Shown piece by piece: positions 1 to 40,964 of a DNA stretch of 64,000 bases. How positions within the stretch are numbered: the first letter of the stretch is position 1; each line of letters begins with the position of its first letter. Made by a program: the position numbers and the translations under genes. Origin of the DNA: a virus (lineage: Duplodnaviria > Heunggongvirae > Uroviricota > Caudoviricetes); IMG/VR virus record IMGVR_UViG_2529292852_000001, positions 32,714 to 96,713 of that record; one strand, given 5' to 3'. The notes under the pieces are model-generated. The model had not been told where the DNA came from. It saw nothing but the letters and a program-made list of their open reading frames with translations, and ran no database searches.

Positions 1-3000
1 TTGATATATGTCTTGTCATCAACTACTTGGCTACCTTCTACCCAATGCTTACTTGTATCTTGCTTGAAGGTAACGATTTGTGGAGTGTTTGTATCAACTG
101 TATGGTTGTTGATACGACCAGAACCACGGTTTGTGAAGGTTGTGCCAGACTTAACGTCATGGTTAACTTCAAAAGTAGCAATTAAGGAAACTTTACCACC
201 TGGAGTTGTAGCTGCATTCTTACGTATAGCTTGGAGTAAGCCACCGAAGTTTATAACCGTATATTGAGATGTTACATCAGTACCATTTTCAAGCACCTTG
301 TAAGATTGTAAAACAGCTTTATCTTTAAAGTCACGATAATCATCAGTAACTGAAACGTAAGATAAAGTCTTAGCTAATTGACTAGGATTAGGTAAGTCCA
401 TATCAACCTTAGTTGTGACAATATCATTGTTGATGTAAGTCTTGCCATCAACAACTTGACTACCTTCAATCCAATGCTTAGTTGGCTTTTGAGTAAATGT
501 TACAATTTGTGCATCAGGAGTTGGTACAGTTTGAGTATTGATTGTACCTGAACCTGAGTTCACAAGTTTAGTTCCTGAAGGTACATTAGGGTTAACCTTA
601 AAGTCAACTACCAATGATACAGTTCCACCGTTAACTGTAGCTGGGTTCTTACGTGTAGCTGTAACAGCGTTATTTGCGTTAGTGATTGCATAATCAGCTG
701 TCGCATTACGTTCGTTTTCATAAACGTTAGCTCCTGTTACAGTTACAAACTTAGCAAATCTACTATAGTTATCAGTTAATGAAACATGAGTTAATTTACC
801 GTTTACAGTTGATGGGCTTGGAACCGTCATATCAACTTTGGCATGAGCTATATCTTCATTAATTTCCATCTTACCATTTACAGTTTGACTACCTTCCTTC
901 CAATTCTTATCGGAAGTTGCTTGATAGACAATGTTGTAGTTGGTGTAGGAAGTGGATAAATATCTTTTTTTAGGTGGTGTCGGTGGAGTATCAGGCATTT
1001 TCATTTGGTACTCCGTATAGTTGGCTTTAAGCGGAGTTGGTGGTTGCAAAGCAACATTAGTACGATGATAGTGGATTGTTGGTGGAGTTGGTGGAGTTGG
1101 TGGAACTAATGTCTTAGCCATACCATATAAATCTGTCGACATTGCCCATTGGTAATAACTATTAACATCGTTTCCTGCACTTGTAAATTCAGTATTATCA
1201 TAGCCAGTTTTTGATGGTAGATAAATTTTTTTACTTTCATCCCAATGGAAATTGCCAGCATTATTGTAGCCATTTTTAGACCATCTAAAAGTTGCACCAT
1301 TTGAAATTTTTGCTACTGCAAAACCAGAGTAATCAGTACCATTAACTCCATAGAATCCGTTACCTAAATCATGTGCTGGAAGTTGATCTTCGTGAGTTTT
1401 GCCATCATCACCTAAAGTAATATTACCTCTAGGGGTATAAATTTTAGCTCCTGATAGAGCTTTAACAGTTTCAGTTACTTCTTTTTGCGTATACCAATCC
1501 CACATAGAAGAATTAAAATGATTTAGTGAGGCTATTCCAAACCAAGCTGTACCGTCCTTAAAGTTAATTAATTTACCAGTATCGTCATAGAAATAGAAAG
1601 TTTCGTCTACTGAATTAGCAAAGGCTGAGAAAGCGTGCATAATTGGATTATTGAAGAATCCAAGAATTACCCTATTACTATTATCTCCGCTGGCTACAAC
1701 ATTGCTAAGAACACCAACAACTTTAGCAATTCTAACCTTAGTGCCATCTAAATTTTTATAGTAAGCACCGTCAGGCATAAGCCATGTAGCTGTGGCAACC
1801 GTTCCACTGTGAGAACCTTGGAAGACTGCACTATATTCTAAAGATTTTGCAAAGTCTTGTTTATAATCATCATCACCACTTGTTTGATTTTGATGTGTCT
1901 CAATAGGTTTAGCATTCCATTGAACTGATAGCTTGGCTCCTTGGCCAAAATTTAAGAATAAATTCTGCCAAATAACTTTAGAATCAATGGAATCTTTTCC
2001 TTGAATACTAGCTAAGTAATCGTTATATTCTTTTTCATATTTAGCCAAGTTATTTTTGTATTCATCTAACTTGTGTTTGTATTGTTGTACTTGAGAATTA
2101 ATACTATCCGCCTGTTGCCTGTTATCACGCTCAATTTCAGCTTTTTTAGAGTTGTAATTATTTACATCAACAGTAACATTACGTGTACCATCATCTATAA
2201 ATTTTACACCATTAGTTGATTTGGCATTTCTTATAGCTGAATCAAGTGAATTACGAGTTGAGTTACTATCTGAGTTAAGATTTTGTGCATCAGTTCTTGC
2301 ACTATTATACCTGTTATTAAGGTCTTTTTGTGCATCTGTAATACTCTTCAAACTTGAAACTTGTTGGTTGTACTTATTATTAACGTCTTGTTTAACTCTA
2401 TTATAAGTAGAGTTGTCTGTAGCCATTACAGTTTGTGTTTGATTTTGAGTAACTTGAACTCCAGCAGCTTTTGCAGCTTGAACTGCAGCTTGCAACTTGT
2501 CTGAATTTTGCTTGTTGACTGTTGTTGAATCTTTACTATTAGCTTGCGAAGTATCGTAGTCAGCCTTAGCATTAGCATATTGATTGTTTAGTTGCTTTTG
2601 TTGTTGAGCTACAGCATTAATCTTATCAGCTTGTTGTTGGTTAGCTTGGCTAACTCGTTGTTGAGCTTGTTGTACTTCTGTTGTATTATGAGCAACAATT
2701 GTTTGACTGTTGTTTTGAGTAACTTGTACCCCTTGCTTTACAGCATTGTTAACAGCATTTTGTACGTCTTGGCTCTTTGGAGATTGAATTGGTACTGAAG
2801 CATTTTGCGTTGTTGAAGAAACACTATTTGTATTACTTTGAGTGCCTACAGTATCAGCACTTGCTTCTTCATGATTAGCCATCATCATCACTGTTCCAGC
2901 AACGGTAAAGCCTAACAATACACTAGCGGTACCAGAAGAAAACTTACGAATACCGTAACGCATATTCTTACGGTTCTGCTTGTTTTCCAACAGCATCATA

Positions 3001-3017
3001 TTGTTTTTTGAAACCAT
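1..3017 (-). CDS. AgI/II-family cell-surface adhesin, N-terminal ~1000 aa (partial, continues past window start): YSIRK-type signal peptide, Gln/Ala-rich coiled-coil A-region, lectin-like V-region, Pro-rich P-region, then repeated Ig-like C-terminal domains
   Basis: Continuous minus-strand frame from ATG at 3017-3015 (RBS AGGAGG at 3021-3030) to the window edge. N-terminus MVSKNNMMLLENKQNRKNMRYGIRKFSSGTASVLLG is a YSIRK-type signal. Coiled-coil QVQQYKHKLDEYKNNLAKYEKEY, and PPTPPTPPTIHYHRTNVALQPPTP. Tandem ~150-aa repeats (KHWIEGSQVVDGKTYINNDI...) visible at 60-130 and 440-540. Not in the ORF track because no stop falls inside the window. Confidence 0.75.
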   Translation of the reverse strand, partial: MVSKNNMMLLENKQNRKNMRYGIRKFSSGTASVLLGFTVAGTVMMMANHEEASADTVGTQSNTNSVSSTTQNASVPIQSPKSQDVQNAVNNAVKQGVQVTQNNSQTIVAHNTTEVQQAQQRVSQANQQQADKINAVAQQQKQLNNQYANAKADYDTSQANSKDSTTVNKQNSDKLQAAVQAAKAAGVQVTQNQTQTVMATDNSTYNRVKQDVNNKYNQQVSSLKSITDAQKDLNNRYNSARTDAQNLNSDSNSTRNSLDSAIRNAKSTNGVKFIDDGTRNVTVDVNNYNSKKAEIERDNRQQADSINSQVQQYKHKLDEYKNNLAKYEKEYNDYLASIQGKDSIDSKVIWQNLFLNFGQGAKLSVQWNAKPIETHQNQTSGDDDYKQDFAKSLEYSAVFQGSHSGTVATATWLMPDGAYYKNLDGTKVRIAKVVGVLSNVVASGDNSNRVILGFFNNPIMHAFSAFANSVDETFYFYDDTGKLINFKDGTAWFGIASLNHFNSSMWDWYTQKEVTETVKALSGAKIYTPRGNITLGDDGKTHEDQLPAHDLGNGFYGVNGTDYSGFAVAKISNGATFRWSKNGYNNAGNFHWDESKKIYLPSKTGYDNTEFTSAGNDVNSYYQWAMSTDLYGMAKTLVPPTPPTPPTIHYHRTNVALQPPTPLKANYTEYQMKMPDTPPTPPKKRYLSTSYTNYNIVYQATSDKNWKEGSQTVNGKMEINEDIAHAKVDMTVPSPSTVNGKLTHVSLTDNYSRFAKFVTVTGANVYENERNATADYAITNANNAVTATRKNPATVNGGTVSLVVDFKVNPNVPSGTKLVNSGSGTINTQTVPTPDAQIVTFTQKPTKHWIEGSQVVDGKTYINNDIVTTKVDMDLPNPSQLAKTLSYVSVTDDYRDFKDKAVLQSYKVLENGTDVTSQYTVINFGGLLQAIRKNAATTPGGKVSLIATFEVNHDVKSGTTFTNRGSGRINNHTVDTNTPQIVTFKQDTSKHWVEGSQVVDDKTYI

Positions 3018-3181
3018 TTAAATTCCTCCTTATAGTAAGTTAATGGTTATATTTACATGATACATTAAAGGTTTATCGAAGTGTTACAAAATATAATTCT
3101 TTGTTTACGAAAATATTTTAAATTTTAGCATTAAATACAGTTATTTTAAGAAGTTAGATTGATAATTTTATGTAGTTTTAA

Positions 3182-4183
3182 AAAGCAATTTACGTTCAAG
3201 TACAACAATACAAGAAGGATTTAGACAACTATAATCAAAAACTCCATCAAGCTGGAAAGAATGTGGTTGATTCACGTTCGCTAATCCAAAAGTTGACTAT
3301 TGAAAGTGAGCCTAATGCTAAGTTGGCTATTAGTAATATTAATAACGTCAATGTAACTCCAGGAGAACATTTGAAATTTAATAATCTTGACGATATGGGG
3401 AATGGTTATTTTGTTGATATAAAAGATAGTAGTAAAGCTGCAAGCTTTGATGCAACCTATACTAATCTACAGAAATTAACTTATAAAGGTAAGAAAATTA
3501 CCAAAGTTATTATGCACTTTTCTACTGCATCTGGATATTGGCATGACCAATACTGGCACGCAGAACTTGCTAATAATATCTACTATGGTTTTCGTTCTTG
3601 GGGCGGAGCTAAAAATATTAGATTTGAATGGTTTTATGAAGACGGATCTAAAGTTAATTTTGAAAATGGAACAGCTTATTTAACTGTTGCTTCGTTAAAT
3701 ACCTATCTTCAAAAAAATCAATGGGGACATGAAAGAACAACTGTTATTTCAGGTGGGAAAGGATTAGCCTTATATGGATCATCTGTATCACTTCATAATG
3801 GCAATGAATTGTATTCGTCTAAAGCTAATAGTATTGATATAAGCGGGAGAGCTAGAGCAACAGATGGGCCAGATTCTAAACCAGATCAAAAATTGATTGA
3901 TAATTTTTTCCCTAATCAAAAAGATATTACTAATACTAACATGCCTTACAAATGGGATACTGCCAGTTCCCCAGATCGCTATTATGGAGCAGGCTTAATC
4001 GCCTTAAATGGTAGTGATTTAGCAGTTATAATTGACGTTAAAAATGATGATAGACCTAATGGTACAGAACCTTGGAACGCTCAATGGGCTAACTTTGGAA
4101 CAATCATTCCAGAGACTCCTAATATTAACAGACCAGAGCTAACAGTCCACTATCATCATACGAACGTTGCTTTGCAACATTAA
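3182..4183 (+). pseudogene. Promoterless adhesin V-region cassette (end of A-region coiled coil + lectin-like V domain + start of P-region). No signal peptide or N-terminus
   Basis: The frame opens right after an in-frame stop at 3179-3181 and the listed ORF starts with GTG. Upstream in-frame residues LQQYKKDLDNYNQKL match the adhesin A-region. Domain motifs are shared with the big adhesin and with 7947-8900 (YYGAGL..NG, HNGN.LYS.KAN, C-terminal TVHYHHTNVALQH). Confidence 0.55.
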
Positions 4184-16198: not shown

Positions 16199-16327
16199 GT
16201 TTTATCCTTCTTTCTTGTTGTTATATTTTTGTTGATAAAGAAAATTAAAATACGACTCTTTATTACAAATGGACGTCAAGCCTACGACTTTAGTCGTGGG
16301 ATATAAGCCCTAGTTTGCCTAAACAAA

Positions 16328-17704
16328 CTAAATATTTTCCATTTTCGTTTCTAGCATTCCATTTACATGATATAAGCTAACAATGTTTTTAACTGTGCTA
16401 GATTTACCACTTTGAAGAATAACGCTTTTCCCTCTACTAATAACACTTTTAACTCTTTCAATTCTGTTAGTTTTGGTATTTAGCACAACATCATGTGGTC
16501 TTAATTGGTAGTGATTTCGTCTAATCGAAACACGCCCCTTTTTAACTTTTTCTTTTCTAAATTGTCTTAAATTGGTGTAATTAAGCTCTCTTGAACGTCT
16601 AGTTCTACCTGAACTTAACTCTTTACCAGCTTTTTGCTTACCATCACGGCTATCAATATATTTAGCGTCATAAAATAATTGCAACACTCGGTTATTATTC
16701 CTTAACTTTTGTCTTGAATAAATATTATTTGTTCTAAAAGTTGTATCAGTCCCACCAGCGATCACAAAAGCGTCATTTAAATGTGATTTTTCAATCTCAT
16801 ACTTTTGTCTTAAGTTAGCGGTTAGATAACCTTGGGTTGTCGTATATTCATCAAAATAATCACTTAATCTTGCTGCTAAAATACTCATAAAGTAAGCACC
16901 ACGATAATCAAGCATCTTTTGTCGATTTTCTCTCAACTTAGCTAAGATACCGTTATTATGGTTAGCTTGATTATGATTAATATCTGACAGTAAAACTAAA
17001 TTATCTGGCTGATTAGATCCACCATCTTTTCTTTGAACTAAGTGATGGACTCTTAATTGACTAGCTGGATATTGTTTACCATCTAAAGCATCACGATAAT
17101 TATCTCTAGCTAGGAGATAATCTTTAATCGTCTTAAAACCATACATTTTGCCTTTTTGATATTGCCACCCTTTAATGTTTGGGTTTAATAATTTTTGATT
17201 GTCGAATGGTGTAACTTCAACGACTAAATTAGTAATTGGCAAAAACGTATATAAGCGTTTGATTTCTTTAATTGTAAAATCTAATCTATGTTGAATACTA
17301 GGAGCTAACCAACCGTCTTTGTGTCTGCGATTATCAAATCTAGCCTTACGGTATCTTAAACGATTTCTTCTAGTTCGTCTTGATTCACGTCTACTAGTAA
17401 TCCTATCTTTTTCTGATTTTCTTAGACTTTCTGACACATAATATTCACGGTTGTTACCCACAACTGATAAACCTAAGTGGAAACCAGCGTCTACTCCTAG
17501 TGTTAAATCTTGAGTATTTGTAGTAACAGGTCTAACAAATTGGATAGTATTTCTACTATTTCCGTACCATTTTGCTTGACCTGTTTTTAACCAACGGCGA
17601 ACCATACCTAATCTTGAAGTTGGCATGAGTGGTGTACCGTTGGAGTCTACTACATAAATATAATCAACTTTTTTAATTTTTGACATCATGTCAACTCCTT
17701 TCAA
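16328..17704 (-). CDS. iscB: IscB RNA-guided nuclease (PLMP domain, RuvC-I, Arg-rich bridge helix, HNH, RuvC-III). True start probably MMSKIKK at ~17689
   Basis: PLMP motif (NGTPLMPTSR), RuvC-I GVDAGFHLGLSVV, bridge RRESRRTRRNRLRYRKARFDNRR, HNH LRVHHLVQRKDGGSNQPDNLVLLSDINHNQ. The RBS AAAGGAG lies inside the annotated 5' end. Confidence 0.8.
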   Translation of the reverse strand: MKGVDMMSKIKKVDYIYVVDSNGTPLMPTSRLGMVRRWLKTGQAKWYGNSRNTIQFVRPVTTNTQDLTLGVDAGFHLGLSVVGNNREYYVSESLRKSEKDRITSRRESRRTRRNRLRYRKARFDNRRHKDGWLAPSIQHRLDFTIKEIKRLYTFLPITNLVVEVTPFDNQKLLNPNIKGWQYQKGKMYGFKTIKDYLLARDNYRDALDGKQYPASQLRVHHLVQRKDGGSNQPDNLVLLSDINHNQANHNNGILAKLRENRQKMLDYRGAYFMSILAARLSDYFDEYTTTQGYLTANLRQKYEIEKSHLNDAFVIAGGTDTTFRTNNIYSRQKLRNNNRVLQLFYDAKYIDSRDGKQKAGKELSSGRTRRSRELNYTNLRQFRKEKVKKGRVSIRRNHYQLRPHDVVLNTKTNRIERVKSVISRGKSVILQSGKSSTVKNIVSLYHVNGMLETKMENI

Positions 17705-17949
17705 TCATAATTCGCACCTAACATAAAGTTGGTACGTGTGTACCCTTCGCCAATGTTATAGGTTGGTTTAATGTTAATTACACTAAGCCTGAACTCAGCT
17801 TTGTTTAATAATCAACCGTAGTGTTTGAAACTAGGGTGGCATTCCAAAGTACCTATTTATTCAACCCTAACGTAGTTATTTAAAACTTAGGCTAATCAAC
17901 CAGCTTGTATTTCTACAAGCCACCTACCTTAGTCGGCGGTTCTGTTGAC
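17705..17949 (-). ncRNA. Putative IscB omega-RNA scaffold (upstream of iscB, guide expected at the LE junction)
   Basis: ~240 nt immediately 5' of iscB, near-identical to 36947-37194 in copy 2. IscB omega-RNAs are known to be encoded at this position. Confidence 0.5.
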
Positions 17950-18385
17950 GATAGGCTTGGTCGTACCATGTTATTAAATCAATTTGCATACTCTCTTCAT
18001 GGCTAACTTTTCTTAGATTTCCTTTGTATTTAACTTGTAGATAATAGATGAATGTTTCACCATCTTCTACAAACTTCCAGCCTTGCATTTTTTCTAATTT
18101 GGCTGTATCTACTGCGTCCCACATTTTCTTAATGCGTTTATCATTGTTTTGATTAATAAAGATATACAGTTTGGCTTGCGTTGACTCAGATTGGTCTTTT
18201 AAGTTCTTAACCAACGAATTTACAATCGTGGCATAATGCTTAGCTATTCTCAAATGGACTTCAACTGCTTTTGACTTTTGATAGTTGTTTTCTTCCATGA
18301 TTTTGTCGAACCAACGCTCGGTTGTCATGTAATAATAGTCTGGTTTATCCATTTTTTTCTGCCTATTATATTGGGTATTTATCAA
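17924..18385 (-). CDS. Hypothetical protein whose 3' end is replaced by the IscB IS insertion
   Basis: The last 8 codons and the stop lie inside the IS left end (…QAYRQQNRRLR*). Confidence 0.4.
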   Translation of the reverse strand: MINTQYNRQKKMDKPDYYYMTTERWFDKIMEENNYQKSKAVEVHLRIAKHYATIVNSLVKNLKDQSESTQAKLYIFINQNNDKRIKKMWDAVDTAKLEKMQGWKFVEDGETFIYYLQVKYKGNLRKVSHEESMQIDLITWYDQAYRQQNRRLR

Positions 18386-20834: not shown

Positions 20835-20912
20835 TTGACCTTCCTTTCAACCTGCATTAGACCAGCTTGTTGACGCGTACCATAACGCTCTAGCAAATCT
20901 CTGTACGTCACT

Positions 20913-26074: not shown

Positions 26075-27328
26075 CTAGGCTAATTGTTCTAATCCTTTGT
26101 CTAGGATATTCTTTGCTGCGTTTATATCACGTATGTGGTAAGTGTTGCATACAGGACAAGTCCAACTCCTATCTTTTAGCGTTAGTTTATCAGTATCTTT
26201 TGTTCCCATAACATGCCCACATTTATTACATGTTTGTGTAGTATTTTTAGGGTTTATGGTAACAAAAGTTTTACCATATAATTCAGCTTTGTATTCTAAC
26301 TTCTGTAGGAATATTCTCCAACCCACATCAGAAATTGACATAGCTAAAGCGTGATTTTTCAACAAATTCTTACTTCTTAGATTTTCAGCCACAACCAAAT
26401 CGTGGTTCTTGATAAGTGTTATTGACATCTCGTCTAAGAATTTATTACGCTGATTACGCACTCTATTCATGAGTTTTGATACCACCATACGTTGTTTTTG
26501 ATAATTTTTGCTATCACGTAAAGAACGTCCCTCTTTCTTGGCTCTGACTTGTCTACGTGATAACTTGCGTTGTGCTTTGGCTAACCTACCCTTGATTGTT
26601 CTATAAAATCTTGGGTTAGCTACAACATTGCCTTCACTTGTTGTTAAGAAGTTATCTGTGTTTAAGTCAATTCCAACTTGAGAGTTAGTTTTAGACAGTT
26701 CCTTAACAAATGGTGTATTAGAACCTAACTGCATAGAAACGTAATAGATACCAAAAGCATTCTTAGAAATAGTAGTTGTACCAATTCTAATATCGTCTTT
26801 ATTATCTAGTAGCTTTCTATAAGAACCACTTACACGAATAATGCCCAGCTTAGGAATATTGATATGTTTATTGTCTACAAATCTAATTGAGCCAGTCCAC
26901 ATATTAACTGGTTTCTTGTTTTTATAAGTCCCACTTGTCTGATACTTTTCTTCATAAGTCTTCTTATGAAAGTTTGGTGTACCAGCATTGTGTACTTTTC
27001 TAAACATGTTCCACGCAGCTTTATATGAACGCATTGCCATATTGCGACAATAACTATCAATATAAGGGTGGTTCATATAGTAATAATGGTTTGCTAAATG
27101 GTTTTGAGCTTTCTTGCGTTGTTCTAATTCTTTAATACGATCTTGAACCATATCAATAGGTAACTTAACTTGTTTAAGTTGATATAACTCTTTATCAATT
27201 GCAACCATAGCGTTGTATACAGCCCTAGATACATCACTGTTCATCTTGATGATTTGTTTTTGCTTTGTACTAGGGTGAATACACATTTTTAAACCATAGT
27301 GATATTTCAACTCACTCATCGTTTTCAT
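26075..27328 (-). CDS. tnpB: TnpB (IS605 OrfB-type RNA-guided nuclease), 417 aa
   Basis: RuvC-I GIDLNTDN, RuvC-II LVVAENL, zinc finger CNKCG...CPVCN, RuvC-III RDINAAKNI. Confidence 0.85.
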   Translation of the reverse strand: MKTMSELKYHYGLKMCIHPSTKQKQIIKMNSDVSRAVYNAMVAIDKELYQLKQVKLPIDMVQDRIKELEQRKKAQNHLANHYYYMNHPYIDSYCRNMAMRSYKAAWNMFRKVHNAGTPNFHKKTYEEKYQTSGTYKNKKPVNMWTGSIRFVDNKHINIPKLGIIRVSGSYRKLLDNKDDIRIGTTTISKNAFGIYYVSMQLGSNTPFVKELSKTNSQVGIDLNTDNFLTTSEGNVVANPRFYRTIKGRLAKAQRKLSRRQVRAKKEGRSLRDSKNYQKQRMVVSKLMNRVRNQRNKFLDEMSITLIKNHDLVVAENLRSKNLLKNHALAMSISDVGWRIFLQKLEYKAELYGKTFVTINPKNTTQTCNKCGHVMGTKDTDKLTLKDRSWTCPVCNTYHIRDINAAKNILDKGLEQLA

Positions 27329-27420
27329 TTTCTCACCTTCTTTCTAATTAATTTTTTGAGGCTTGTTTCAACCTCTATTAGCACTAACGGAATCGAACCG
27401 CCATAAAACAACCATGTGTA

Positions 27421-27589
27421 GTCTTATACCTATGTCATTTAACTTAGGTTCAGAACAAAGTATGACTTAAAAGTCCCTTATTTAAAGTCTTGCACCTATG
27501 CCATTTAACCTAGGTTCAGAACGTGGCGGTAGCGAAAGCAACTCATACCAAGGTCTTGCACCTACATCAATTCAACTTAGGTTCAGAAC
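27421..27589 (-). CRISPR. CRISPR-like mini-array A: 3 repeats (36-37 nt), 2 spacers (30 nt)
   Basis: Plus-strand repeat GTCTT(A/G)CACCTATG(T/C)CATTTAAC(C/T)TAGGTTCAGAAC at 27421, 27487 and 27553. Unique spacers. Confidence 0.6.
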
Positions 27590-27730
27590 CGTTGTTTTCT
27601 AACCTATATTTAATTGTGACATAAGCTTCTTGGGAACTCTCCATACTTGCGATGTACTATTGTTAGATTAACTAACTAACACCGTAGAGGTTAGAGATAT
27701 TAACCAAGCTGAAAAGAACAAGCGCCCTCC
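27590..27730 (-). ncRNA. Conserved scaffold A (~140 nt) with an anti-repeat at the array-proximal end. tracrRNA/omega-RNA-like
   Basis: One of 8-9 homologous copies. The array-proximal 30 nt (minus strand CTTATGTCACAATTAAATATAGGTTAGAA) is complementary to the repeat. Confidence 0.5.
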
Positions 27731-27783
27731 TACTAGCACTAGTGGAATCGAACCACTATTGTAGCAACCATGCGTGCCAAATT
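27731..27783 (-). ncRNA. tRNA-like mini-element (acceptor-like stem + T-arm mimic, no anticodon arm)
   Basis: Minus strand GGCACGCATGGTTGC...AGTGGTTCGATTCCACTAGTGCT. T-loop GTTCGATTC. Confidence 0.45.
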
Positions 27784-27831
27784 GTATATTATTTTCAAAC
27801 AAAAACATTAGTGAAACACACGTCAAACTCT

Positions 27832-28057
27832 GTCTTATACTATGTCTTTTTAGCTAGGTTCAGAACATATTGATTCGTACATAAAATTATAACTATGTCT
27901 TACACCTATGCCATTTAACCTAGACTAAGAACTCTAATCAAGTAGCAACTTCAACAGGTGCTGTCTTGCGCCTATGTCATTTAACCTAGGTTCAGAATAT
28001 TATCTAATATACTAAGAGTGTGTCTTGTACCTATGTCATTTAACTTAGGTTCAAAAC
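27832..28057 (-). CRISPR. CRISPR-like mini-array B: 4 repeats (first is degenerate), spacers of 29, 30 and 23 nt
   Basis: Repeats at 27832, 27897, 27963 and 28022. Confidence 0.55.
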
Positions 28058-28197
28058 CGTTGTTTTCTAACCTATATTTAATTGTGACATAAGTTTCTTG
28101 GGAACTCTCCATACTTGCGATGTTTTACCGTTAGATTAACCAACAACACCGTAGAGGTTAGAGATATTAACCAAGCTGTCGAGAACAAGCGTCCTCC
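28058..28197 (-). ncRNA. Conserved scaffold B with anti-repeat
   Basis: Homologous to scaffold A (CGTTGTTTTCTAACCTATATTTAATTGTGACATAAG...GAGAACAAGCGTCCTCC). Confidence 0.5.
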
Positions 28198-28862
28198 AAA
28201 TTTTATTATCTAACGCTCAAATAACACTTCAAACATGAGCTTTCACTCTGCTTATAATGTGCTACCGTTTATTATGTGAACGTCCCACAAGGTCTGAGCA
28301 ATAAGGAGCTACCCTATTACTTCCTCGTGCTATTTAACGACGTGGCTACTATGATAAGTACCAACTTTCAGGCGATCATTCAGAACTTTGTTTTTATTTT
28401 AATCTTAATTGTTGTATGTGGATTTTAAGTCCAAGACAACAATTACTGTCTGTAATCTTGATGCCATTGCCCTACTTGTTCTTGTTTCCGTTGTTATAGC
28501 TCAGTTTCCTAAGCGTCAAGGCAAACACTGTCTTTGGTTATTCCCATCGCATCACTTAGCTACCACACTAAGCTGCCAATGGGTTATTCCCACACCGTGA
28601 GCGTCTATTTTATCCAGTGCCAACGGTCAACAAAGCACTAACGTCACACACTTCCACATACGTACCAAACGTCCTAGCTTTTACCAGGTTTGATAGTTAT
28701 TGCTAACAATCTCTCGACTTATCTAAGCTATCACTCAGACTACATCTACTACGAATTACAGGTACATATCCGACAAGATTTGACTAAAACCCTTATGCAA
28801 TCGGTTATGCTTGAAGCGTTATTTGAACGGTAAATAATTTCTGATTCTGGATCCTCTATATA
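28198..28862. other. Unassigned ~665-nt noncoding segment, higher GC than its surroundings. Possible structured RNA
   Basis: No convincing ORF (the only listed one, 63 aa, looks spurious). Sits between array C and scaffold B. Partial resemblance to 40965-41221. Confidence 0.2.
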
Positions 28863-29228
28863 GCCTTACACCTATGTCATTTAACATAGGTTCAGAACAG
28901 AAAACATTCTTTTCTTTTATAGAATATTGTCTTCAACCTATGTCATTTAGCCTAGGTTCAGAACTAAAAACGATGAAAGCGATAGATGATTTTGGTCTTA
29001 TACCTATGTCATTTAACTTAGATTCAGAACCCCACCACAGTTGCAAAACAAACTCAAATAGTCTTACACCTATGCCATTTTACTTAGGCTCAGAACCAAT
29101 CTCGCTATTATCCAAGAATGTAATTAGTCTTACACCTATGTCATTTAACCTAGGTTCAGAACCATCATGAAAGGAGGTGAGATTGTGGCAGAGTCTTGCA
29201 CCTATGCCATTTAACTTAGGTTCAGAAC
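28863..29228 (-). CRISPR. CRISPR-like mini-array C: 6 repeats (36 nt), 5 spacers (29-30 nt)
   Basis: Repeats at 28863, 28929, 28995, 29061, 29127 and 29193. On the minus strand it lies directly downstream of the scaffold, which lies directly downstream of the tnpB stop. Confidence 0.65.
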
Positions 29229-29369
29229 CGTTGTTTTCTAACCTATATTTAATTGTGACATAAGCTTCTTGGAAACTCTTCGGACTTGCAATATCTCTCT
29301 GTTAGATTAACTAACTGATACTGTAGAGGTTAAAGATATTTACCAAGCTGTCGAGAACAAGCGTCCTCC
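29229..29369 (-). ncRNA. Conserved scaffold C with anti-repeat, in the position expected for a TnpB omega/reRNA (immediately 3' of tnpB)
   Basis: Homologous to the other scaffolds. Begins (minus) GGAGGACGCTTGTTCTCGACAGCTTGG right after the tRNA-like element that overlaps the tnpB stop. Confidence 0.5.
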
Positions 29370-29370
29370 T

Positions 29371-29436
29371 ATAACGATGGCAGGAATCGAACCTGCATCT
29401 GTTACCTTGCCTTACCGTTAGGCTACATCGCTACTT
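29371..29436 (-). ncRNA. tRNA-like element with acceptor stem, D-arm (GCCTAACGGTAAGGC) and T-arm but no anticodon arm. Overlaps the tnpB stop codon
   Basis: Minus strand AGCGATGTAGCCTAACGGTAAGGCAAGGTAACAGATGCAGGTTCGATTCCTGCCATCGTT. Only 13 nt lie between the D- and T-arms. Confidence 0.5.
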
Positions 29437-30873
29437 GTTTCTTCTTTAGGTGTGGTTTTATTTTTAGCTCCACACTTAGTACATGTCCACTTTTCATCTT
29501 GCGTGATAACCGTACGTTCATGCCCACATTTCTTGCAAGTATCATTCATCTTATCTAGTAAATCCAAGCCTTCATCTAAGATGTTTTTAGCTGCGTTTAT
29601 GTCTTGATCATGGTGAGAATTACATACAGGACAAGTCCAATTACGATCCTTTAATTTAAGGTTGTGCTTAATGTAACCACAAGTATGGCAACGCTTTGAA
29701 GTTGGTGACCAACGATCAATAAACACAATCTTTTTATCAGCCCAGTCCATCATGTAAGTGAGCGTATCTCTAATTTCACGAAAGTTTGATCTAGTGATTG
29801 CTCTAGCACGGTATTTGTTCTTTTCCATGTCTGAAACAGCTAGGTCTTCCATAACGATTACATCATATTCATTAGCAAGCTTTGAACATGTCTTTTTAAT
29901 ATAGTCTTTTTTCAAGTTCTTAATACGTAAGTGTAACTTAGCAATTTTCTTTTTGTTCTTTTGGTAATTGCTACGTTCAGCTAAAGTAGGAACATGCTTT
30001 GGAATTAAGGCTTTTTTATTATCTTCTTCAATAATTGCGACCTCTTTTTTCCATTGTTCATACTTACGACTACGCTTTATGTTTTCTTTTTCAATCTTTT
30101 GTTCTAATTTTCTGATTTTGTCATATGGTAATTGATACCTTGTGCCATCTTGTAAAACAATATGACTATTACCTGTTACGTTTAAGTCAATGCCAGCTGC
30201 TAAACCAGTTCTAGGACGATCTACAGTATGTTCAGCTTGTTCAAACACAATTGACGCATACCAAGTATCGCTAGATTCATGCTTAATTGTTACTTTATAC
30301 AAACGACCATCACTAGGATAATGGTTAGCAATTTCAATTAAGCCTAACTTAAACTTCTTTAATTTACCTACTCTAAGGTAATTTCCATCTTCGCTTATAC
30401 CACAAACTTGAGCGCCTGAAGTATAGCTTCCGTTATTGTCAACGTCCATCGTTGTTTTAAATCTAGGAATACCAAAGTGTCTAGGGTTTTTCAAATGGTT
30501 GCTCATCGCTGTTTTTAAAGTACGTAAAGTGTAACTATACATACTAGTGTCAGCATCTTTCAAAGTCCAACCACTTTTAAATACAGTTTCATCAGCATCG
30601 TAAATTGCCTTAGTTGATAATTCACGTACACCTTTGAACAAATCACGTTGTTCTTCCCATGACATTCTTTCAATACGTTTGTAAACTTCTTTGCTTTGTT
30701 TATTTTTAGGTAAAGCTTGAACTTCATCTAATTCACTAACTGGCTTATAAACTTCAGCTAGTAACGCATTCCACATTTTGATGTTAGCAAACATATTAAA
30801 CGTTAAGTATGCTTGTTGTTCTTTAGTAGGATAAATTCTAATTCTACGACTTTCTAAAACTTTTTCTTCCATT
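29418..30873 (-). CDS. tnpB: TnpB paralog (~485 aa) with an extra C-terminal zinc ribbon. The annotated 551-aa ORF is probably over-extended at the 5' end
   Basis: RuvC-I GIDLNVTGN, RuvC-II VIVMEDL, ZnF CHTCG...CPVCN, RuvC-III QDINAAKNI, then a second ribbon CKKCG...CTKCG. The first 67 codons of the listed ORF are homologous to the noncoding scaffold. The internal Met (MEEKVLESRR) has RBS AAGGAG 9 nt upstream. Confidence 0.75.
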
Positions 30874-30879
30874 TTTTCC

Positions 30880-31073
30880 AACTCCTTTTTTGAGTTAACA
30901 TGTAATTTACGCATAGTCTTTTGGCTGACTACACCTAACGCTAACCCTTCCACAATGGACGTCTTTATTTGTGCCATCAGCACTTTTTGGGAACTCTTCA
31001 ACAAAGAAATGCAATTAGCAACACTTTGTTTGCGAAGATGTTTACCAAACTGTGAAGAGCAAGCACCCTCCAA
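30880..31073 (-). ncRNA. Decayed scaffold copy (5' leader of tnpB) without an adjoining repeat
   Basis: Minus strand GGAGGGTGCTTGCTCTTCACAGTTTGGTAAACATCTT...GAAGAGTTCCCAAAAAGTGCTGATGGCACAAATAAAG aligns with the scaffold 5' and 3' blocks. Confidence 0.45.
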
Positions 31074-31074
31074 T

Positions 31075-31138
31075 AACGATGGTAGGAATCGAACCTACGT
31101 CGCCTCGCTTTGCTCTACCATTGAGCTACATCGTTGTT
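31075..31138 (-). ncRNA. tRNA-like element (7-bp acceptor, canonical D-arm TAGCTCAATGGTAGAGCA, T-arm, no anticodon arm), immediately upstream of the tnpB leader
   Basis: Minus strand AACGATGTAGCTCAATGGTAGAGCAAAGCGAGGCGACGTAGGTTCGATTCCTACCATCGTTA. Confidence 0.5.
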
Positions 31139-31165
31139 TTGACTTTAATTAAGCCCATGATTTCA

Positions 31166-31399
31166 TTCTTACACCTATGTCAATTCAACTAGGTTCAGAA
31201 CATTTGATTGCACTATCGAACTCATCACGTCGTCTTACACCTATGTCAATTCAACTAGGTTCAGAACTATCCTAAGAGTAATTGGAGTCCACTCGAAGTC
31301 TTACACCTATGTCAATTTAACTAGGTTCAGAACGGATCTCCCAAGCGAAGGAATCGAAGGCACGTCTTGCGCCTATGTCAATTTAACTAGGCTCAGAAC
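31166..31399 (-). CRISPR. CRISPR-like mini-array D: 4 repeats (variant GTCTTACACCTATGTCAATTCAACTAGGTTCAGAAC), 3 spacers of 30 nt
   Basis: Repeats at 31166 (5' end degenerate), 31232, 31298 and 31364. Confidence 0.6.
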
Positions 31400-31539
31400 C
31401 ATTGTTTTCTAACCTATATTTAATTGTGACATAAGCTTCTTGGGAACTCCCCATGCTTGCGATGCCTTACTGTTAGTTTAACCAACAACACCGTAGAGGC
31501 TAGAGATATTAGCCAAGCTGTCGAGAACAAGCGTCCTCC
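31400..31539 (-). ncRNA. Conserved scaffold D with anti-repeat
   Basis: Homologous to scaffolds A-C. Confidence 0.5.
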
Positions 31540-31592
31540 TATTAGCATTAGCGGAGTCGAACCACTATTAAAGTAACCGTACATGCCAACCT
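31540..31592 (-). ncRNA. tRNA-like mini-element
   Basis: TATTAGCATTAGCGGAGTCGAACCACTATTAAAGTAACCGTACATGCCAACC (plus strand). Confidence 0.4.
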
Positions 31593-31669
31593 ACAATAAA
31601 CATAAAGGAGATGCAGGCTAAATTCCTGCGATAGACACAATGTACGCAGGGGTTAAGAAGAAACCCCCT

Positions 31670-31720
31670 ATTAGCACTGGTAGAATCGAACCACCATTAA
31701 GCAACCATACGTGCCAACCT
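31670..31720 (-). ncRNA. tRNA-like mini-element preceded by a GGGG..CCCC hairpin
   Basis: TTAGCACTGGTAGAATCGAACCACCATTAAGCAACCATACGTGCCAACC. Confidence 0.4.
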
Positions 31721-31774
31721 TGAGTAAATCATTCAGTACAATCACACCGCCGCCACGAACCCTAGATGGCGGCA

Positions 31775-31945
31775 GTCTTACACCTATGTCAATTCAACTA
31801 GGTTCAGAACCCTAACCTATATTTAATTGTGACACAAGTTTCTTGGGAACTCTTCTTACTTACAATGTTGCTAACTAAGTAATCTAAGTTGCAACACTGT
31901 AGAGGCTAAAAATATTAACCAAGCTGTCGAGAACAAGCGTCCTCC
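31775..31945 (-). ncRNA. Solo repeat (31775-31810) fused to a scaffold copy (31811-31945)
   Basis: One perfect D-type repeat followed directly by CCTAACCTATATTTAATTGTGACACAAG...GCGTCCTCC. Confidence 0.5.
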
Positions 31946-31996
31946 TATTAGCACTAGTGGAATCGAACCACTACAAGATAACCGTATGTACTAGCC
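31946..31996 (-). ncRNA. tRNA-like mini-element
   Basis: TATTAGCACTAGTGGAATCGAACCACTACAAGATAACCGTATGTACTAGCC. Confidence 0.4.
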
Positions 31997-32067
31997 TCAT
32001 AAGTAACTTTATAGAAAAGGAGTTTGTTACATAACCACTCATACATGGGAGTATTATTACACTCCCT

Positions 32068-32123
32068 ATTAGCATAGCTAGAATCGAACTAACTTTTATT
32101 CCAAAATGCTTATATTTGCTAAG
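32068..32123 (-). ncRNA. tRNA-like mini-element (variant type, as at 40806-40860) preceded by a GGGAGT..ACTCCC hairpin
   Basis: ATTAGCATAGCTAGAATCGAACTAACTTTTATTCCAAAATGCTT. Confidence 0.35.
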
Positions 32124-32132
32124 TTATGATAA

Positions 32133-32432
32133 GTCTTACACCTATGTCAATTCAACTAGGCTCAGAACCTCGTCTAAGGCTTTTTAATTGTTCTTCTGGT
32201 CTTACACCTATGTCATTTAACCTAGGTTCAGAACTGAAAGGAGATGATTAAATTGAGCAATATAGTCTTACACCTATGTCAATTCAACTAGGTTCAGAAC
32301 CTACTTTGAAATCACTACATCATAACCACGGTCTTACACCTATGTCAATTCAACTAGGTTCAGAACCCTTGACTAATAGTGATAAACGTATCAGATGTCT
32401 TACACCTATGTCAATTCAACTAGGTTCAGAAC
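32133..32432 (-). CRISPR. CRISPR-like mini-array E: 5 repeats (36 nt), 4 spacers (30 nt)
   Basis: Repeats at 32133, 32199, 32265, 32331 and 32397. Confidence 0.65.
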
Positions 32433-32575
32433 CGTTATTTTCTAACCTATATTTAATTGTGACATAAGTTTCTTGGGAACTCTTCTTACTTGCAATGGCG
32501 CTAACTAAGTAATTTTAATTGCGACACTGTAGAGGCTAAAGATATTAACCAAGCTGTCGAGAACAAGCGTCCTCC
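32433..32575 (-). ncRNA. Conserved scaffold E with anti-repeat (middle section is of the variant family)
   Basis: CGTTATTTTCTAACCTATATTTAATTGTGACATAAG...CTGTAGAGGCTAAAGATATTAACCAAGCTGTCGAGAACAAGCGTCCTCC. Confidence 0.5.
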
Positions 32576-32640
32576 AATAGCGATGGCAGGAGTCGAACCC
32601 ACTTGATTGCTCTACCGTTGAGCTACACCGCTACACCAAA
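32576..32640 (-). ncRNA. tRNA-like element with a canonical D-arm (TAGCTCAACGGTAGAGCA) and T-arm, no anticodon arm
   Basis: Minus strand GTAGCGGTGTAGCTCAACGGTAGAGCAATCAAGTGGGTTCGACTCCTGCCATCGCTATT. Confidence 0.45.
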
Positions 32641-32981
32641 ATGTACATAACGAATAAAGATAAAGTTAAGATTATAAGGGTTGTGCTAATGCTTACAGGA
32701 ACGATAGAGGCTTACATGTAGTTTACTGATGTCCCTGTAGGCTTAACCCTTTGCCTTACGTTTATTATGATACACTATCTCGCACCCTAAGTCAAATGTT
32801 TTTGTATACTTTTTTAAAATAAAATTCAAAAAAGTTGAAAAATAAAAAAAGCCACAAGCCTAGGTAACCCTAAGTGTAGCTTTCTTTTACACAGCAAAAC
32901 AAACATTAAGGAGCCTTAACTGTTTTTCGCTAGTTTTATTCTAGCATAAACATTAGTGTTTTCCCAGCGGTTGTAGCTGAG

Positions 32982-35474: not shown

Positions 35475-35569
35475 AATTCATCAACCCCTTTTGATTAATT
35501 TTTATTACAAACGGACGTAAAACCTATGATTTTAGTCGTGGAATATAAGCTCTAGTTTGCCTAAACAAA

Positions 35570-36946
35570 CTAAATATTTTCCATTTTCTTTTCCAACATT
35601 CCATTTACATGATATAAGCTAATTACATTTTTAACTGTGCCATATTTACCGTTTTGGAAAACAATGCCCTTTCCTCTACTATTAACTCCTTTGACTCTTT
35701 CAATCCTGTTAGTTCTGGTATTTAACACAACATCATGTGGTCTTAATTGATAATGACCTCTTCTAATCGAAACACGACCCTTTTTAACTTTTTCTTTTCT
35801 AAATTGTCTTAAATTGTCATAATTAAGCTCTTGGGATCGTCTAGTTCTCCCTGAACTTAACTCTTTACCAGCTTTTTGTTTACCATCGCGACAATCAATA
35901 TACTTAGCGTCATAAAACAACTGTAATATACGATTATTATTCCTTAACTTTTGTCTCGAATAAACATTGTTTGTTCTAAGGGTTGTATCAGTTCCACCAG
36001 CAATCACAAAAGCGTCATTTAAGTGAGATTTTTCAATCTTATACTTTTGTCTTAGGTTAGCGGTTAGATAACCTTGAGTTGTCGTATATTCATCAAAATA
36101 ATTGCTTAATCTTGTTGCTAAAATGCTCATAAAATAAGCTCCACGATAATCAATCGTCTTTTGCCGATTTTGTCTTAATTTAGCTAAGACACCATTATTG
36201 TGATTAGCTTGATTATGGTTAATATCTGACAATAAAACTAAGTTATCTGGCTGATTAGAACCACCATCTTTTCGCTGCACTAAGTGATGAACTCTTAATT
36301 GACTAGCTGGATATTGTTTACCATCTAAAGCATCACGATAGTTATCTCTAGCTAGTAGATAATCCTTAATCGTCTTAAAACCATACATCTTACCTTTTTG
36401 ATACTGCCAGGCTTTAATATTTGGATTAGCTAGTTTTTGATTATCAAATGGTGTAACTTCAACGACTAAATTAGTAATGGGTAAAAACGTATATAAACGT
36501 TTGATTTCTTTAATTGTAAAATCTAATCTGTGTTGAATACTAGGAGCTAACCAGCCGTCTTTACGTCTACGATTATCAAATCTAGCTTGACGGTATCTTA
36601 AATGTCCTCTTCGAGTACGTCTTAATTCTCTTCGACTAGTAATTCGATCTTTTTCTGACTTTCTTAAGCTTTCTGACGCATAATATTCACGTTGGTTTCC
36701 AACAACAGATAATCCTAAGTGAAAACCAGCATCTACTCCTAAAGTTAAATTTTGTGTATTTGTAGTAACAGGTCTGACAAATTGGATAGTCTTACGACTA
36801 TTTCCGAACCATCTTGCTTGACCTGTTTTTAACCAACGACGCACCATGCCTAATCTTGAAGTTGGCATGAGTGGTGTGCCGTTGGAGTCTACTACATAGA
36901 TATAATTAAATTTTTTGATTTCTGACATCATGCCAACTCCTTTCAA
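35570..36946 (-). CDS. iscB: IscB RNA-guided nuclease, copy 2
   Basis: Same motifs as copy 1 (PLMP, RuvC, HNH), with a handful of substitutions. Confidence 0.8.
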   Translation of the reverse strand: MKGVGMMSEIKKFNYIYVVDSNGTPLMPTSRLGMVRRWLKTGQARWFGNSRKTIQFVRPVTTNTQNLTLGVDAGFHLGLSVVGNQREYYASESLRKSEKDRITSRRELRRTRRGHLRYRQARFDNRRRKDGWLAPSIQHRLDFTIKEIKRLYTFLPITNLVVEVTPFDNQKLANPNIKAWQYQKGKMYGFKTIKDYLLARDNYRDALDGKQYPASQLRVHHLVQRKDGGSNQPDNLVLLSDINHNQANHNNGVLAKLRQNRQKTIDYRGAYFMSILATRLSNYFDEYTTTQGYLTANLRQKYKIEKSHLNDAFVIAGGTDTTLRTNNVYSRQKLRNNNRILQLFYDAKYIDCRDGKQKAGKELSSGRTRRSQELNYDNLRQFRKEKVKKGRVSIRRGHYQLRPHDVVLNTRTNRIERVKGVNSRGKGIVFQNGKYGTVKNVISLYHVNGMLEKKMENI

Positions 36947-37194
36947 TAATTGTAATTCGCACCTAACATAAAGTTGGTACGTGTGTACCCTTCGCCAATG
37001 TTATAGGTTGGTTTAATGTTAATTACACTGAGCCTGAACTCAACTCTGTTTAATAATTAACCGTAGAGTCTAAGACTAGGGTGGCATCTTAGAGTACCTA
37101 TCTATTCAACCCTAACGTAGTTACTTAAAACTTAGGCTAATCAACCAGCTTGCATTTCTACAAGCCACCTACTTTAGTCGGTGGTTCTGTTGAC
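36947..37194 (-). ncRNA. Putative IscB omega-RNA scaffold, copy 2
   Basis: Conserved with 17705-17949. Confidence 0.5.
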
Positions 37195-37389
37195 CTACTT
37201 TGCCAAATAGTCTTTTACGCTGTCACTAGCAGCTTGGTCTAACTTACGTCTGTGATATAGTCGATTACCCATGCACCAAGGACAAGTTCCATGGTTACGG
37301 CAAGTTTGGTCTACAGCTTTTGAGCCGTAATAAGGTTTGCGATGTTCTTTTCCATGTTTGATTGCTTTTTCTAAGCCCATATAAATCAC
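37195..37389 (-). CDS. Small Cys-rich (zinc-ribbon-like) protein
   Basis: CRNHGTCPWC motif. 64 aa. Confidence 0.35.
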   Translation of the reverse strand: MIYMGLEKAIKHGKEHRKPYYGSKAVDQTCRNHGTCPWCMGNRLYHRRKLDQAASDSVKDYLAK

Positions 37390-39557: not shown

Positions 39558-39719
39558 GTCTTAGCTTATGCTTTCAACTAGGATCAGAACCTATATCCAA
39601 TTGTGACATAAGCTTCCTGGGAACTCTTTGTACTTGCAATGCCGCTAACTAAGTAATCTAAATTGTAGCACTGTAGAGGTTGAAGATATTAACCAAGCTG
39701 AAAAGAACAAGCGTCCTTC
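39558..39719 (-). ncRNA. Degenerate solo repeat (39558-39590) + scaffold copy (39591-39719), directly upstream of gene 38782-39537
   Basis: ...TTCAACTAGGATCAGAAC then CTATATCCAATTGTGACATAAGCTTCCTGGGAACTC...GAAAAGAACAAGCGTCCTTC. Confidence 0.45.
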
Positions 39720-39786
39720 AAATAGCGATGGCAGGAGTCGAACCTGTATCTCATGCCTTGCTCTACCGTTGAGCTACATCGCTACG
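39720..39786 (-). ncRNA. tRNA-like element with a canonical D-arm and T-arm, no anticodon arm
   Basis: Minus strand GCGATGTAGCTCAACGGTAGAGCAAGGCATGAGATACAGGTTCGACTCCTGCCATCGCT. Confidence 0.45.
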
Positions 39787-39869
39787 CTTACACTTTTTAT
39801 TTTAGGGAGGAAAAAGTGTAGCCCCATACACATTCCGATTAGTTGGCTCGCCCTTGTTTTTCAACAAGG

Positions 39870-40860
39870 ACAATTGGCACTGGTAGGATCGAACTACCAT
39901 TAAGCAACCGTGCGTGCCAACCGTGAATTAATGTTATGATTTATTTAGGGCTTATTTTTGCCCTATTGGCAAACAAGGAGTCGAACCTTGACGTCACAAC
40001 CGTGTTACCAACTGTATTTCCAAAGGTGAACTAACGAAATACAAGGAACTGTCTTGCAAACACCCACTCTTGTCAGATGTACAGTCTTAGTTTGTTTAAC
40101 AGTTCGTTTTGACTTTTTTCATGGCCCTGTACAGGAGGCAAAGCCCAGCACCAAAAACAACATAAGGTAGGTAGTTAGGATTAACCTTAACCTATTGGCA
40201 CTAGCAGAGTCGAACCGCTATGAAAGCAACCGTGCGTGCCAACTTATTGAGAGAAAAAACTTTAAAGGAAAGATATTTTTGTTGTCCCACTAGGGTTATT
40301 TTCGCCTTCGTTTTACCAAAGGCAATTAGCACCAGTGGAGTCGAACCACTGTAAAAGCAACCGTACGTGCCAACCAAATCATAAATATTAAATCAAGGAG
40401 TTATGTTAGTTAGAGTAATTTTTTTATTACTCTAAAGAGAAAAAGTTTTGAGTTTGTAGCTTAATGCTACAATTGGCACTAACAGAATCGAACTGTTACA
40501 AGACAACCATGCGTGCCAGCCGATAAGTAACTTTTAAAAAAGGAGTAATATACAACCATCTTAGGGTTTATTCAAGCCCTATTGGTGTTAGCGGAATCGA
40601 ACCGATATACAGCAACCATGCACACCAACCAATATTTTAAGAGTTTATATAATAAGGCATTTAAGCCTAAATAAGAGGAAATAGTTTTAGGGTTGTTACA
40701 CCCTATTGGTAGCCAAGGAATCGAACCTTGATACAACCACTCTACCAACCTATAAGTAATAGTTTAAGTGCAAGTGTGAATGCCACTGTGAAGCTTGTCA
40801 GTGGCAATAAGCATAGCTAGAGTCGAACTAGCTTTTATTCCAAAATGCTTGTTAGATAAA
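39870..40860 (-). repeat. Tandem array of 8 tRNA-like mini-elements (~48 nt each: 5-bp acceptor-like stem, 3-bp mini D-hairpin with a YGGT loop, T-arm with a GTTCGAYTC loop), spaced 60-120 nt apart, each followed on the minus strand by an AGGGTT..AACCCT hairpin
   Basis: Units at ~39873, 39962, 40193, 40323, 40468, 40573, 40697 and 40806. Stems covary while loops are conserved. Confidence 0.55.
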
Positions 40861-40870
40861 CCTGTGATAT

Positions 40871-40964
40871 GTCTTATCTTATGTTTGTTTTAGCTAAGTT
40901 CAGAACATAACTCTCTACACAGTATTCTGTCTTATACTTACGTCATTTTAACTAGGTTCAAAAT
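40871..40964 (-). CRISPR. Two degenerate repeats with a 22-nt spacer (array remnant)
   Basis: GTCTTATCTTATGTTTGTTTTAGCTAAGTTCAGAAC and GTCTTATACTTACGTCATTTTAACTAGGTTCAAAAT. Confidence 0.35.

Follow-up and report, generated by a model that had tools for sequence, protein, structure and literature searches.

The window, as the whole 64,000-nucleotide (nt) stretch of DNA analysed here is called (positions 32,714 to 96,713 of IMG/VR record IMGVR_UViG_2529292852_000001), contains two copies of a repeated element made up of an iscB gene, the region of its omega-RNA and a hairpin near each end. The record is filed as viral. The window comes from a plasmid of Ligilactobacillus salivarius; it is collinear, at about 89–93% identity, with the 166.6-kb linear plasmid 'unnamed2' of L. 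salivarius ZSA5, and neither the element nor the 25 kb around it has a match in the phage collection. Both loci are very probably elements of the IS200/IS605 family that carry iscB and omega-RNA without a transposase, and which are non-autonomous because the transposase gene tnpA is absent. The features of the two copies and of one related site are listed below, with the strand of the window, the target-adjacent motif abbreviated as TAM, open reading frame as ORF and amino acids as aa.

16259–16263, plus strand: TAM (TTTAT) of copy 1, 5' of the left end
16264–16327, plus strand: left end of copy 1, containing a subterminal hairpin
16328–17689, minus strand: iscB of copy 1, 452–453 aa from ATG; ORF open from TTG at 17704
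17736–17949, minus strand: omega-RNA scaffold (HEARO) of copy 1; Rfam RF02033, 130.2 bits, model positions 1–211 of 211
17920–17949, plus strand: right end of copy 1, with hairpin CCACCTAC-CTTA-GTCGGCGG (17920–17939)
17950–17965, minus strand: presumed guide of copy 1, RNA 5'-UACGACCAAGCCUAUC-3', in the last retained codons of ORF 17924–18385
20870–20874, plus strand: TTGAC in the place of TTTAT, probably the scar left by loss of a third copy
35501–35505, plus strand: TAM (TTTAT) of copy 2; its counterpart in the ZSA5 plasmid overlaps a 187-aa SocA-like gene at the stop codon
35506–35569, plus strand: left end of copy 2, with hairpin CCTATGAT-TTTA-GTCGTGGA (35523–35542)
35570–36931, minus strand: iscB of copy 2, 452–453 aa from ATG; ORF open from TTG at 36946
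36981–37194, minus strand: omega-RNA scaffold (HEARO) of copy 2; Rfam RF02033, 135.2 bits, full length
37165–37194, plus strand: right-end hairpin and TTGAC of copy 2
37195–37210, minus strand: presumed guide of copy 2, 5'-CUAUUUGGCAAAGUAG-3', in the stop and last codons of ORF 37195–37389

The repeat spans TTTATTAC (from 16259 and 35501) to ...GGTTCTGTTGAC (to 17949 and 37194), and the flanks of the two copies are unrelated. Each end sequence occurs twice in the window, where no occurrence would be expected by chance. An initial annotation of this DNA had aligned the two copies end to end. The alignment holds, with an identity of 0.889 overall across the elements, but the second copy starts at 35501 and not at 35499, and the first 5 nt of the repeat are the TAM. 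The element proper is 16264–17949 (1686 nt) in copy 1 and 35506–37194 (1689 nt) in copy 2. The annotation had also called the omega-RNA end the left end and had placed the subterminal hairpin at the right. These names are reversed: by the IS200/IS605 convention the end with the omega-RNA and guide is the right end, so the plus strand of the window is the transposon top strand and the hairpin in question is that of the left end. On this strand the order is the TAM TTTAT, the left end with its hairpin, iscB (reverse), omega-RNA (reverse), the right end with its hairpin, and the terminal TTGAC. The errors of the annotation were limited to naming and detail, namely the swapped ends, the 5 nt of TAM counted as element and the unstated strand.

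Two hallmarks of the IS200/IS605 family can be examined at these ends. The first is a pair of subterminal imperfect hairpins, one at each end and both on one strand, with the cleavage sites a set distance away. In copy 1 the left-end hairpin, CCTACGAC-TTTA-GTCGTGGG at 16281–16300, lies 17 nt inside the cleavage site, and the right-end hairpin is followed by 10 nt that close with the cleavage motif TTGAC (17945–17949), which differs from the TAM at two positions. The second is insertion 3' of a short motif without target duplication. This is seen for a paralogue in L. salivarius SNK-6 plasmid p1, for which there are clean empty sites in pMP118 and two other plasmids. When empty, the site reads ...TTCTAATTTAT joined directly to AATCTATTTT...; when occupied, it reads ...TTTAT, then the element TACAAATGG...GGTTCTGTTGAC, then AATCTA..., with no duplication and no ambiguity. 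The element is therefore TAC...TTGAC with the TAM TTTAT outside it, and the boundaries of the window copies follow by analogy. The window copies have the TAM, yet their sites are replacements and not simple insertions. TTTAT adjoins the left end in all five salivarius-type copies and also, by eye, in the L. equi copy, and the empty counterparts of the SNK-6 p1 site show that TTTAT was there before insertion. Two other boundaries were considered. An element start at TATTAC, with the GTC of the HEARO 5' end as host DNA, came from comparing site A of the window (CCAGCTTGTTGAC followed by GCG) with the ZSA5 plasmid and is overruled by the SNK-6 empty sites. The same sites rule out TTAC, as in IS608, as the TAM with a left end beginning at AAATGG.

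The TAM of copy 1 reads ATAAA on the iscB strand and overlaps the ancestral stop codon of an upstream 145-aa ORF. The position of the elements at gene 3' ends is explained by this overlap of A-TAA-A with stop codons. IS608 of Helicobacter pylori (PMC3201880) has the same top-strand subterminal hairpins, lacks target duplication, and is cleaved 3' of a short motif that lies outside the left end and inside the right end. Its hairpin spacings are 19 and 10 nt (PMC3201880) as against 17 and 10 nt here, its target is TTAC and not TTTAT, and it carries tnpA and tnpB, whereas the window elements carry iscB only, in the inverse orientation.

Both iscB genes are intact minus-strand ORFs (16328–17704 and 35570–36946). 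The annotation gave IscB as 458 aa, a length counted from TTG; the likely start is an ATG behind a GGAG ribosome-binding site, which gives 452–453 aa, the length of annotated homologues. The parts it had named, PLMP, RuvC-I/II/III, HNH and the Arg-rich bridge, are upheld by family matches and by alignment of the catalytic residues with OgeuIscB. The whole proteins score 284.3 and 283.2 bits against the NCBIfam IscB equivalog NF040563 (cutoff 175), Pfam RRXRR (PF14239) matches residues 16–185 at 1e-47, and solved IscB structures, OgeuIscB and others, match at 1e-34 to 1e-35. With OgeuIscB (PDB 7UTN, 7XHT, 8CSZ; E = 8e-34) the proteins share the order PLMP/RRXRR, RuvC-I, Arg-rich bridge helix, RuvC-II, HNH, RuvC-III; only residues ~15–320 align by sequence, leaving the C-terminal ~140 aa, presumed to interact with the TAM, unaligned. 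The split RuvC motifs GVDAG, VVEVTPF and SHLNDAF align with GIDPG, VLELNRF and DHYLDAY of OgeuIscB, so the RuvC-I D, the RuvC-II E and the RuvC-III H..D are in place. Likewise RVHHLVQRK...DNLVLLSDINH aligns with HYHHVVPRR...ENRVGLCEEHH, which includes the catalytic HH, N and H of the HNH domain. By BLASTP, a 100% identical protein on a 180-kb contig is already present in NCBI as 'RNA-guided endonuclease IscB [Ligilactobacillus salivarius]'. Look-ups of the exact sequence of the window IscB, and of the proteins P0016 and P0059, gave no record. More than 250 full-length close homologues were found at E < 1e-100, the named ones from L. salivarius, L. agilis and L. equi, and the nearest relatives outside Ligilactobacillus in a genome scan have ~43% identity or less.

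The zinc-binding cysteines of the HNH domain, which are typical of IscB and not strictly defining, were absent from the HNH segment in copy 1 (win1) and in two relatives (L005 and L006). The segment comprises IscB residues ~205–245 (16970–17090 and 36212–36332, minus strand) and is identical in both window copies. All of the 74 more distant IscB relatives fetched from genomes have 4–6 cysteines around the motif, and OgeuIscB has CxxC...C..H. From these sequences the Ligilactobacillus IscB clade appears to have lost all four zinc-binding HNH cysteines and to have kept the catalytic HH, N and H. The clade enzyme might therefore be a nickase or act by RuvC only, its HNH domain disabled or destabilised by the loss, and be functionally nearer to IsrB. 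The Pfam HNH match covers only profile positions 12–36 of 47 and, at 19.5 bits, falls short of its cutoff of 21.4; it points the same way as the missing cysteines. We consider such an enzyme unlikely all the same, given that the catalytic residues are retained in alignment with OgeuIscB, that the segment is unchanged between two copies differing otherwise at ~10% of residues, and that the HNH domain of Cas9 works without a zinc site.

Between the start of the ORF and the end of the repeat lie ~245 nt in each copy, which the annotation expected to be the omega-RNA scaffold. A scan with covariance models confirms this: HEARO (RF02033) matches at full length and scores 130 and 135 bits, where 83 is the gathering score, and HEARO is the omega-RNA of IscB (Meers et al., bioRxiv 10.1101/2023.03.14.532601). 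In both copies the match begins exactly at the repeat boundary and finishes 31–34 nt before the ORF; each iscB thus has its cognate omega-RNA immediately upstream on its own strand, as is expected of an IscB gene. The functional omega-RNA is ~30 nt longer than the Rfam model (Meers et al., bioRxiv 10.1101/2023.03.14.532601), and that of copy 1 would run on to ~17705. Within this extension beyond the model, both copies have a small conserved hairpin that lies directly ahead of the ribosome-binding site of iscB; in copy 1 a small conserved hairpin at 17731–17744 resembles a terminator at the RNA 3' end. In the consensus fold of six copies (the two in the window, three from other L. salivarius replicons and one from L. 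equi), compensatory changes affect both sides of 20 of the 72 predicted pairs. The omega-RNA segment is 92% conserved, as against ~89% for the iscB coding sequence.

The gene is under purifying selection. Pairwise among five copies, the ratio of nonsynonymous to synonymous divergence (dN/dS) is 0.09–0.16 at a dS of 0.18–0.50, and for copy 1 against the others it is 0.10–0.16. Between the window copies dS is 0.50 and dN/dS 0.10, with ~10% of residues different, so these are old paralogues that have both been kept intact. Could they nevertheless be decaying relics without function? There is no transposase nearby, both insertions were accompanied by deletions, and a chromosomal relative (DSM 20555 type) has an in-frame deletion that leaves 420–426 aa. 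Such decay is very improbable for the window copies, since both ORFs are intact at a dN/dS of ~0.1, the omega-RNA is more conserved than iscB and has compensatory pair changes, and full-length close homologues are abundant.

The flanks immediately 5' of the HEARO start differ between copy 1 and copy 2. The annotation proposed that such a flank serves as the guide, which is consistent with the behaviour of the family described by Meers et al.; the flank in question belongs to the right end. By this analogy the flanks are presumed guides, with a length of 16 nt that is assumed. Both copies point the same way as the genes upstream of them, and the regions scanned hold no more promoter-like matches than shuffled sequence does. 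Together these observations fit read-through transcription and the orientation bias of Meers et al. Transcription of the upstream host gene, which has the same orientation, would read through into the element and yield the omega-RNA from the minus strand. As such transcription would start upstream of the element, the 5' ~16 nt of the RNA would be host flank, acting as the guide, and would be followed by the HEARO scaffold of ~215–245 nt. IscB with this RNA would cut DNA that matches the guide and has ATAAA after the match, which is the joint that would form if a TnpA acting in trans excised the element. The occupied site would be spared because GTCAA follows the guide match there. Repair of the break from a copy still holding the element would then keep or spread it, as reported for the Geobacillus IscB (Meers et al., bioRxiv 10.1101/2023.03.14.532601).

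The Geobacillus stearothermophilus element (ISGst family; Meers et al., bioRxiv 10.1101/2023.03.14.532601 / Nature 2023) is a close comparison for this arrangement among the known systems considered. It is likewise non-autonomous and of IS605 type, has a HEARO-type omega-RNA before iscB that the right end delimits, shares the orientation of the gene upstream, and has an AT-rich 5-nt TAM at the left end with a right-end motif at two differences from it. Its TAM is TTCAT and that of the Ligilactobacillus elements TTTAT. The Ligilactobacillus elements differ further in that no cognate TnpA was found for them and in their HNH domain without cysteines.

The annotation's statement that there is no tnpA agrees with our searches. 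In the window, including the elements themselves, no Y1 (HUH) TnpA was found when TnpA of IS608 and IS200 served as tblastn queries, the best match having E = 0.39; as a positive control, these queries did detect tnpA next to iscB in five loci from outside Lactobacillus. A tblastn search of PLSDB with Y1 TnpA gave 2,967 records; the ten genera listed do not include Ligilactobacillus, a result that is uninformative for L. salivarius plasmids. Absence of tnpA is the usual state for iscB, since tnpA lies close to only ~1.5% of these genes (Meers et al., bioRxiv 10.1101/2023.03.14.532601).

Several observations weigh against reading the two loci as mobile elements maintained by a working nuclease. 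The 354 kb of sampled, partly redundant Ligilactobacillus loci contain no tnpA match at E <= 0.01, even with a real TnpA from one control locus added to the queries, and with no tnpA found the current mobility of the elements is putative. The left-end hairpin of copy 1 is preceded by CAAG (16277–16280), where copy 2 and three other copies have AAAA, a difference that may impair, alter or abolish cleavage at that end. Compared with relatives, neither copy in the window is simply inserted; each stands in place of host DNA. Sequences matching the guides in the sampled relatives are followed by GCAAA or GTAAG (copy 1) and by GTGAG or GTGAT (copy 2), and not by ATAAA, so no present target is seen there. 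Finally, the loss of the cysteines means that HNH activity is not assured. As a separate observation, CAAG in copy 1 equals the corresponding bases at the right end. On the supporting side, TTAT, the last four bases of the TAM, set together with AAAA would fit the pairing pattern reported for IS608 (Barabas et al. 2008).

Some of these points would also suit a different history, in which the copies have become fixed, domesticated IscB–omega-RNA modules with frozen guides that benefit the plasmid, for example by cutting competing plasmid variants or by regulating through binding. The lack of tnpA in the window and in the 354 kb of related loci, the strong purifying selection on copies as old as these, the altered bases before the copy 1 hairpin, and one relative (L118) that has lost its left end with iscB still intact would all be accommodated. 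The end hairpins and TAM are conserved, however, in the salivarius-type copies that retain the left end, and at least five distinct insertion sites across Ligilactobacillus replicons, one of them clean at TTTAT, indicate transposition in the history of the clade. The selfish-retention model predicts purifying selection too, and no target next to ATAAA was found for either guide in the relatives. Domestication is thus possible, though we think it rather less likely than the interpretation of the loci as non-autonomous IS200/IS605 elements.

What host DNA did these elements replace? At the copy 1 site, the 145-aa ORF stands directly before a 79-aa ORF, with no element between, in 11 relatives, and the window lacks the last 31 nt of the 145-aa ORF beside the right end. 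As the annotation noted, copy 1 replaces the last codons of ORF 17924–18385, which ends ...AYRQQNRRLR, read from the element right end, as against ...AYRKQV(N/S)EGILLA in the eleven relatives. At the copy 2 site a 187-aa gene, whose ZSA5 homologue is annotated as a SocA-domain antitoxin, lies between 61-aa and 274-aa ORFs in 8 of the 8 relatives shown and is absent from the window (window 35493–37197 compared with L004 12469–13047 and with L088–L095). Copy 2 replaces this gene exactly, with the TAM at the gene's stop codon and the right end against the stop of the upstream ORF, and its abutment on ORF 37195–37389, also seen in the annotation, is due to the missing gene. A metagenomic copy (L096) and the common insertion at site A have the same flank mismatch.

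In four of the five comparable sites the element replaces everything between TTTAT and a downstream site, the right end being exact to 0–2 nt. The missing DNA ends, on the top strand, in TTGC, TCAC, ACAC and TCAT, which are loosely like TTAT of the TAM and TGAC of the right end; this TNAY likeness is loose and was derived post hoc. It suggests a second cleavage of transposase type, and slippage or end joining are also possible. Cleavage by IscB itself is disfavoured as the cause of the deletions, because a Cas9-like cut ~3 nt inside the target would leave nucleotides of the old flank where the right end is kept to 0–2 nt. Recombination between two bona fide insertions was also considered and fails for the window copies, since in relatives the flanks at their right ends are not followed by a TAM. 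It does account for L114 (ena ERZ27280521 k141_62604), where a hybrid IscB element at 2233–3923 has its first ~200 nt and right-end flank of the SNK-6/pMP118 type (rpiA-rpe locus) and its remainder and left-end flank identical to the ZSA5 type. This hybrid is either the product of recombination between copies on two replicons or a chimera of metagenome assembly; L096, too, is possibly an assembly chimera.

Two further variants were seen among the relatives. In a pair of metagenome contigs (L106 and L107), whose IscB is 85% identical, ACCCTAA has taken the place of the final 7 nt of the left end. These repeat the 8 nt (CACCCTAA) that precede the right end, so that a short direct repeat brackets the element, an uncommon feature in the family. 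L003 (NZ_CP117984.1, ~211888–211949), a pMP118-type megaplasmid, has no iscB nearby but holds an isolated piece of 62 nt from the right end and the omega-RNA 5' hairpin (GTCAACCGAACC...).

At a third site in the window, site A, there is no element. Here 20862–20881 joins directly the two flanks between which an IscB element lies in ZSA5 and at least five other replicons. Is this an ancestral empty site, or has an element been lost? The window shares the derived flanks of the occupied sites, which argues for a scar, and a deletion between the 4-nt repeats TGTT...TGTT would give exactly the junction observed. The TTGAC at 20870–20874 is thus probably a scar of element loss in which the TAM was destroyed, and such a site would escape cutting by IscB. 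A more speculative scheme would combine these features: entry coupled to deletion as a side reaction of TnpA, one end being taken at a second cleavable site and the guide thereby reset, together with the TTGAC scar as a footprint of retention and an HNH domain that works without zinc. As a whole we regard this scheme as doubtful.

The replicon family to which the window belongs carries RepA_N, ParA/ParM, a DnaB-like helicase, FtsK, flotillin and several TnpB genes. The annotation's view that IscB and TnpB coexist on this replicon is correct, the ORF 26075–27328 (417 aa) scoring 285.3 bits against the TnpB family NF040570 (cutoff 100). Its view that the IscB omega-RNA is unrelated in sequence to the array scaffolds agrees with the finding that no repeat family links the elements to the arrays at 27.4–32.6 and 39.5–41.8 kb. 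Dense repeats at 27400–32650 and 39570–41800 comprise 66-nt tandem units, units of 76–187 nt and tRNA-like units of 60–80 nt. They flank the TnpB-type ORFs 26075–27328 and 29418–31073, a 91-nt repeat is common to both ORFs, and the arrangement is also found in the ZSA5 plasmid. Within the repeat region beside the TnpB genes is a full-length ROOL RNA (28218–28828, minus strand; RF03087, 231 bits against a gathering score of 99). ARAGORN found no tRNA in the window despite four Rfam tRNA matches of 55–62 nt, which are therefore tRNA-like fragments.

The value of this analysis lies chiefly in the correct annotation of a known kind of element, whose iscB and omega-RNA standard pipelines already recognise. 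It describes a compact IscB (452 aa) with its ~245-nt omega-RNA, an ATAAA TAM inferred for it, and natural guides, in a species of Lactobacillaceae from food and the gut. Because the clade is abundant and under purifying selection, it could reasonably be considered as a source of genome-editing tools native to lactobacilli. The features peculiar to this lineage are moderately interesting. Its HNH domain, devoid of cysteines, offers a natural test of whether the zinc site is necessary to IscB. The deletion-coupled insertions and the scar without a TAM, which are known from sequence comparison only, would, if confirmed, bear on the reshaping of plasmids and on the selfish-retention model. If the insertions do arise through a TnpA side reaction, IS200/IS605 elements would have a means, not described so far, of removing genes next to them and of resetting the guide of their nuclease. 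Likewise, the scar at 20870–20874 would be a natural footprint of retention enforced by IscB, in which only a loss that destroys the TAM survives.

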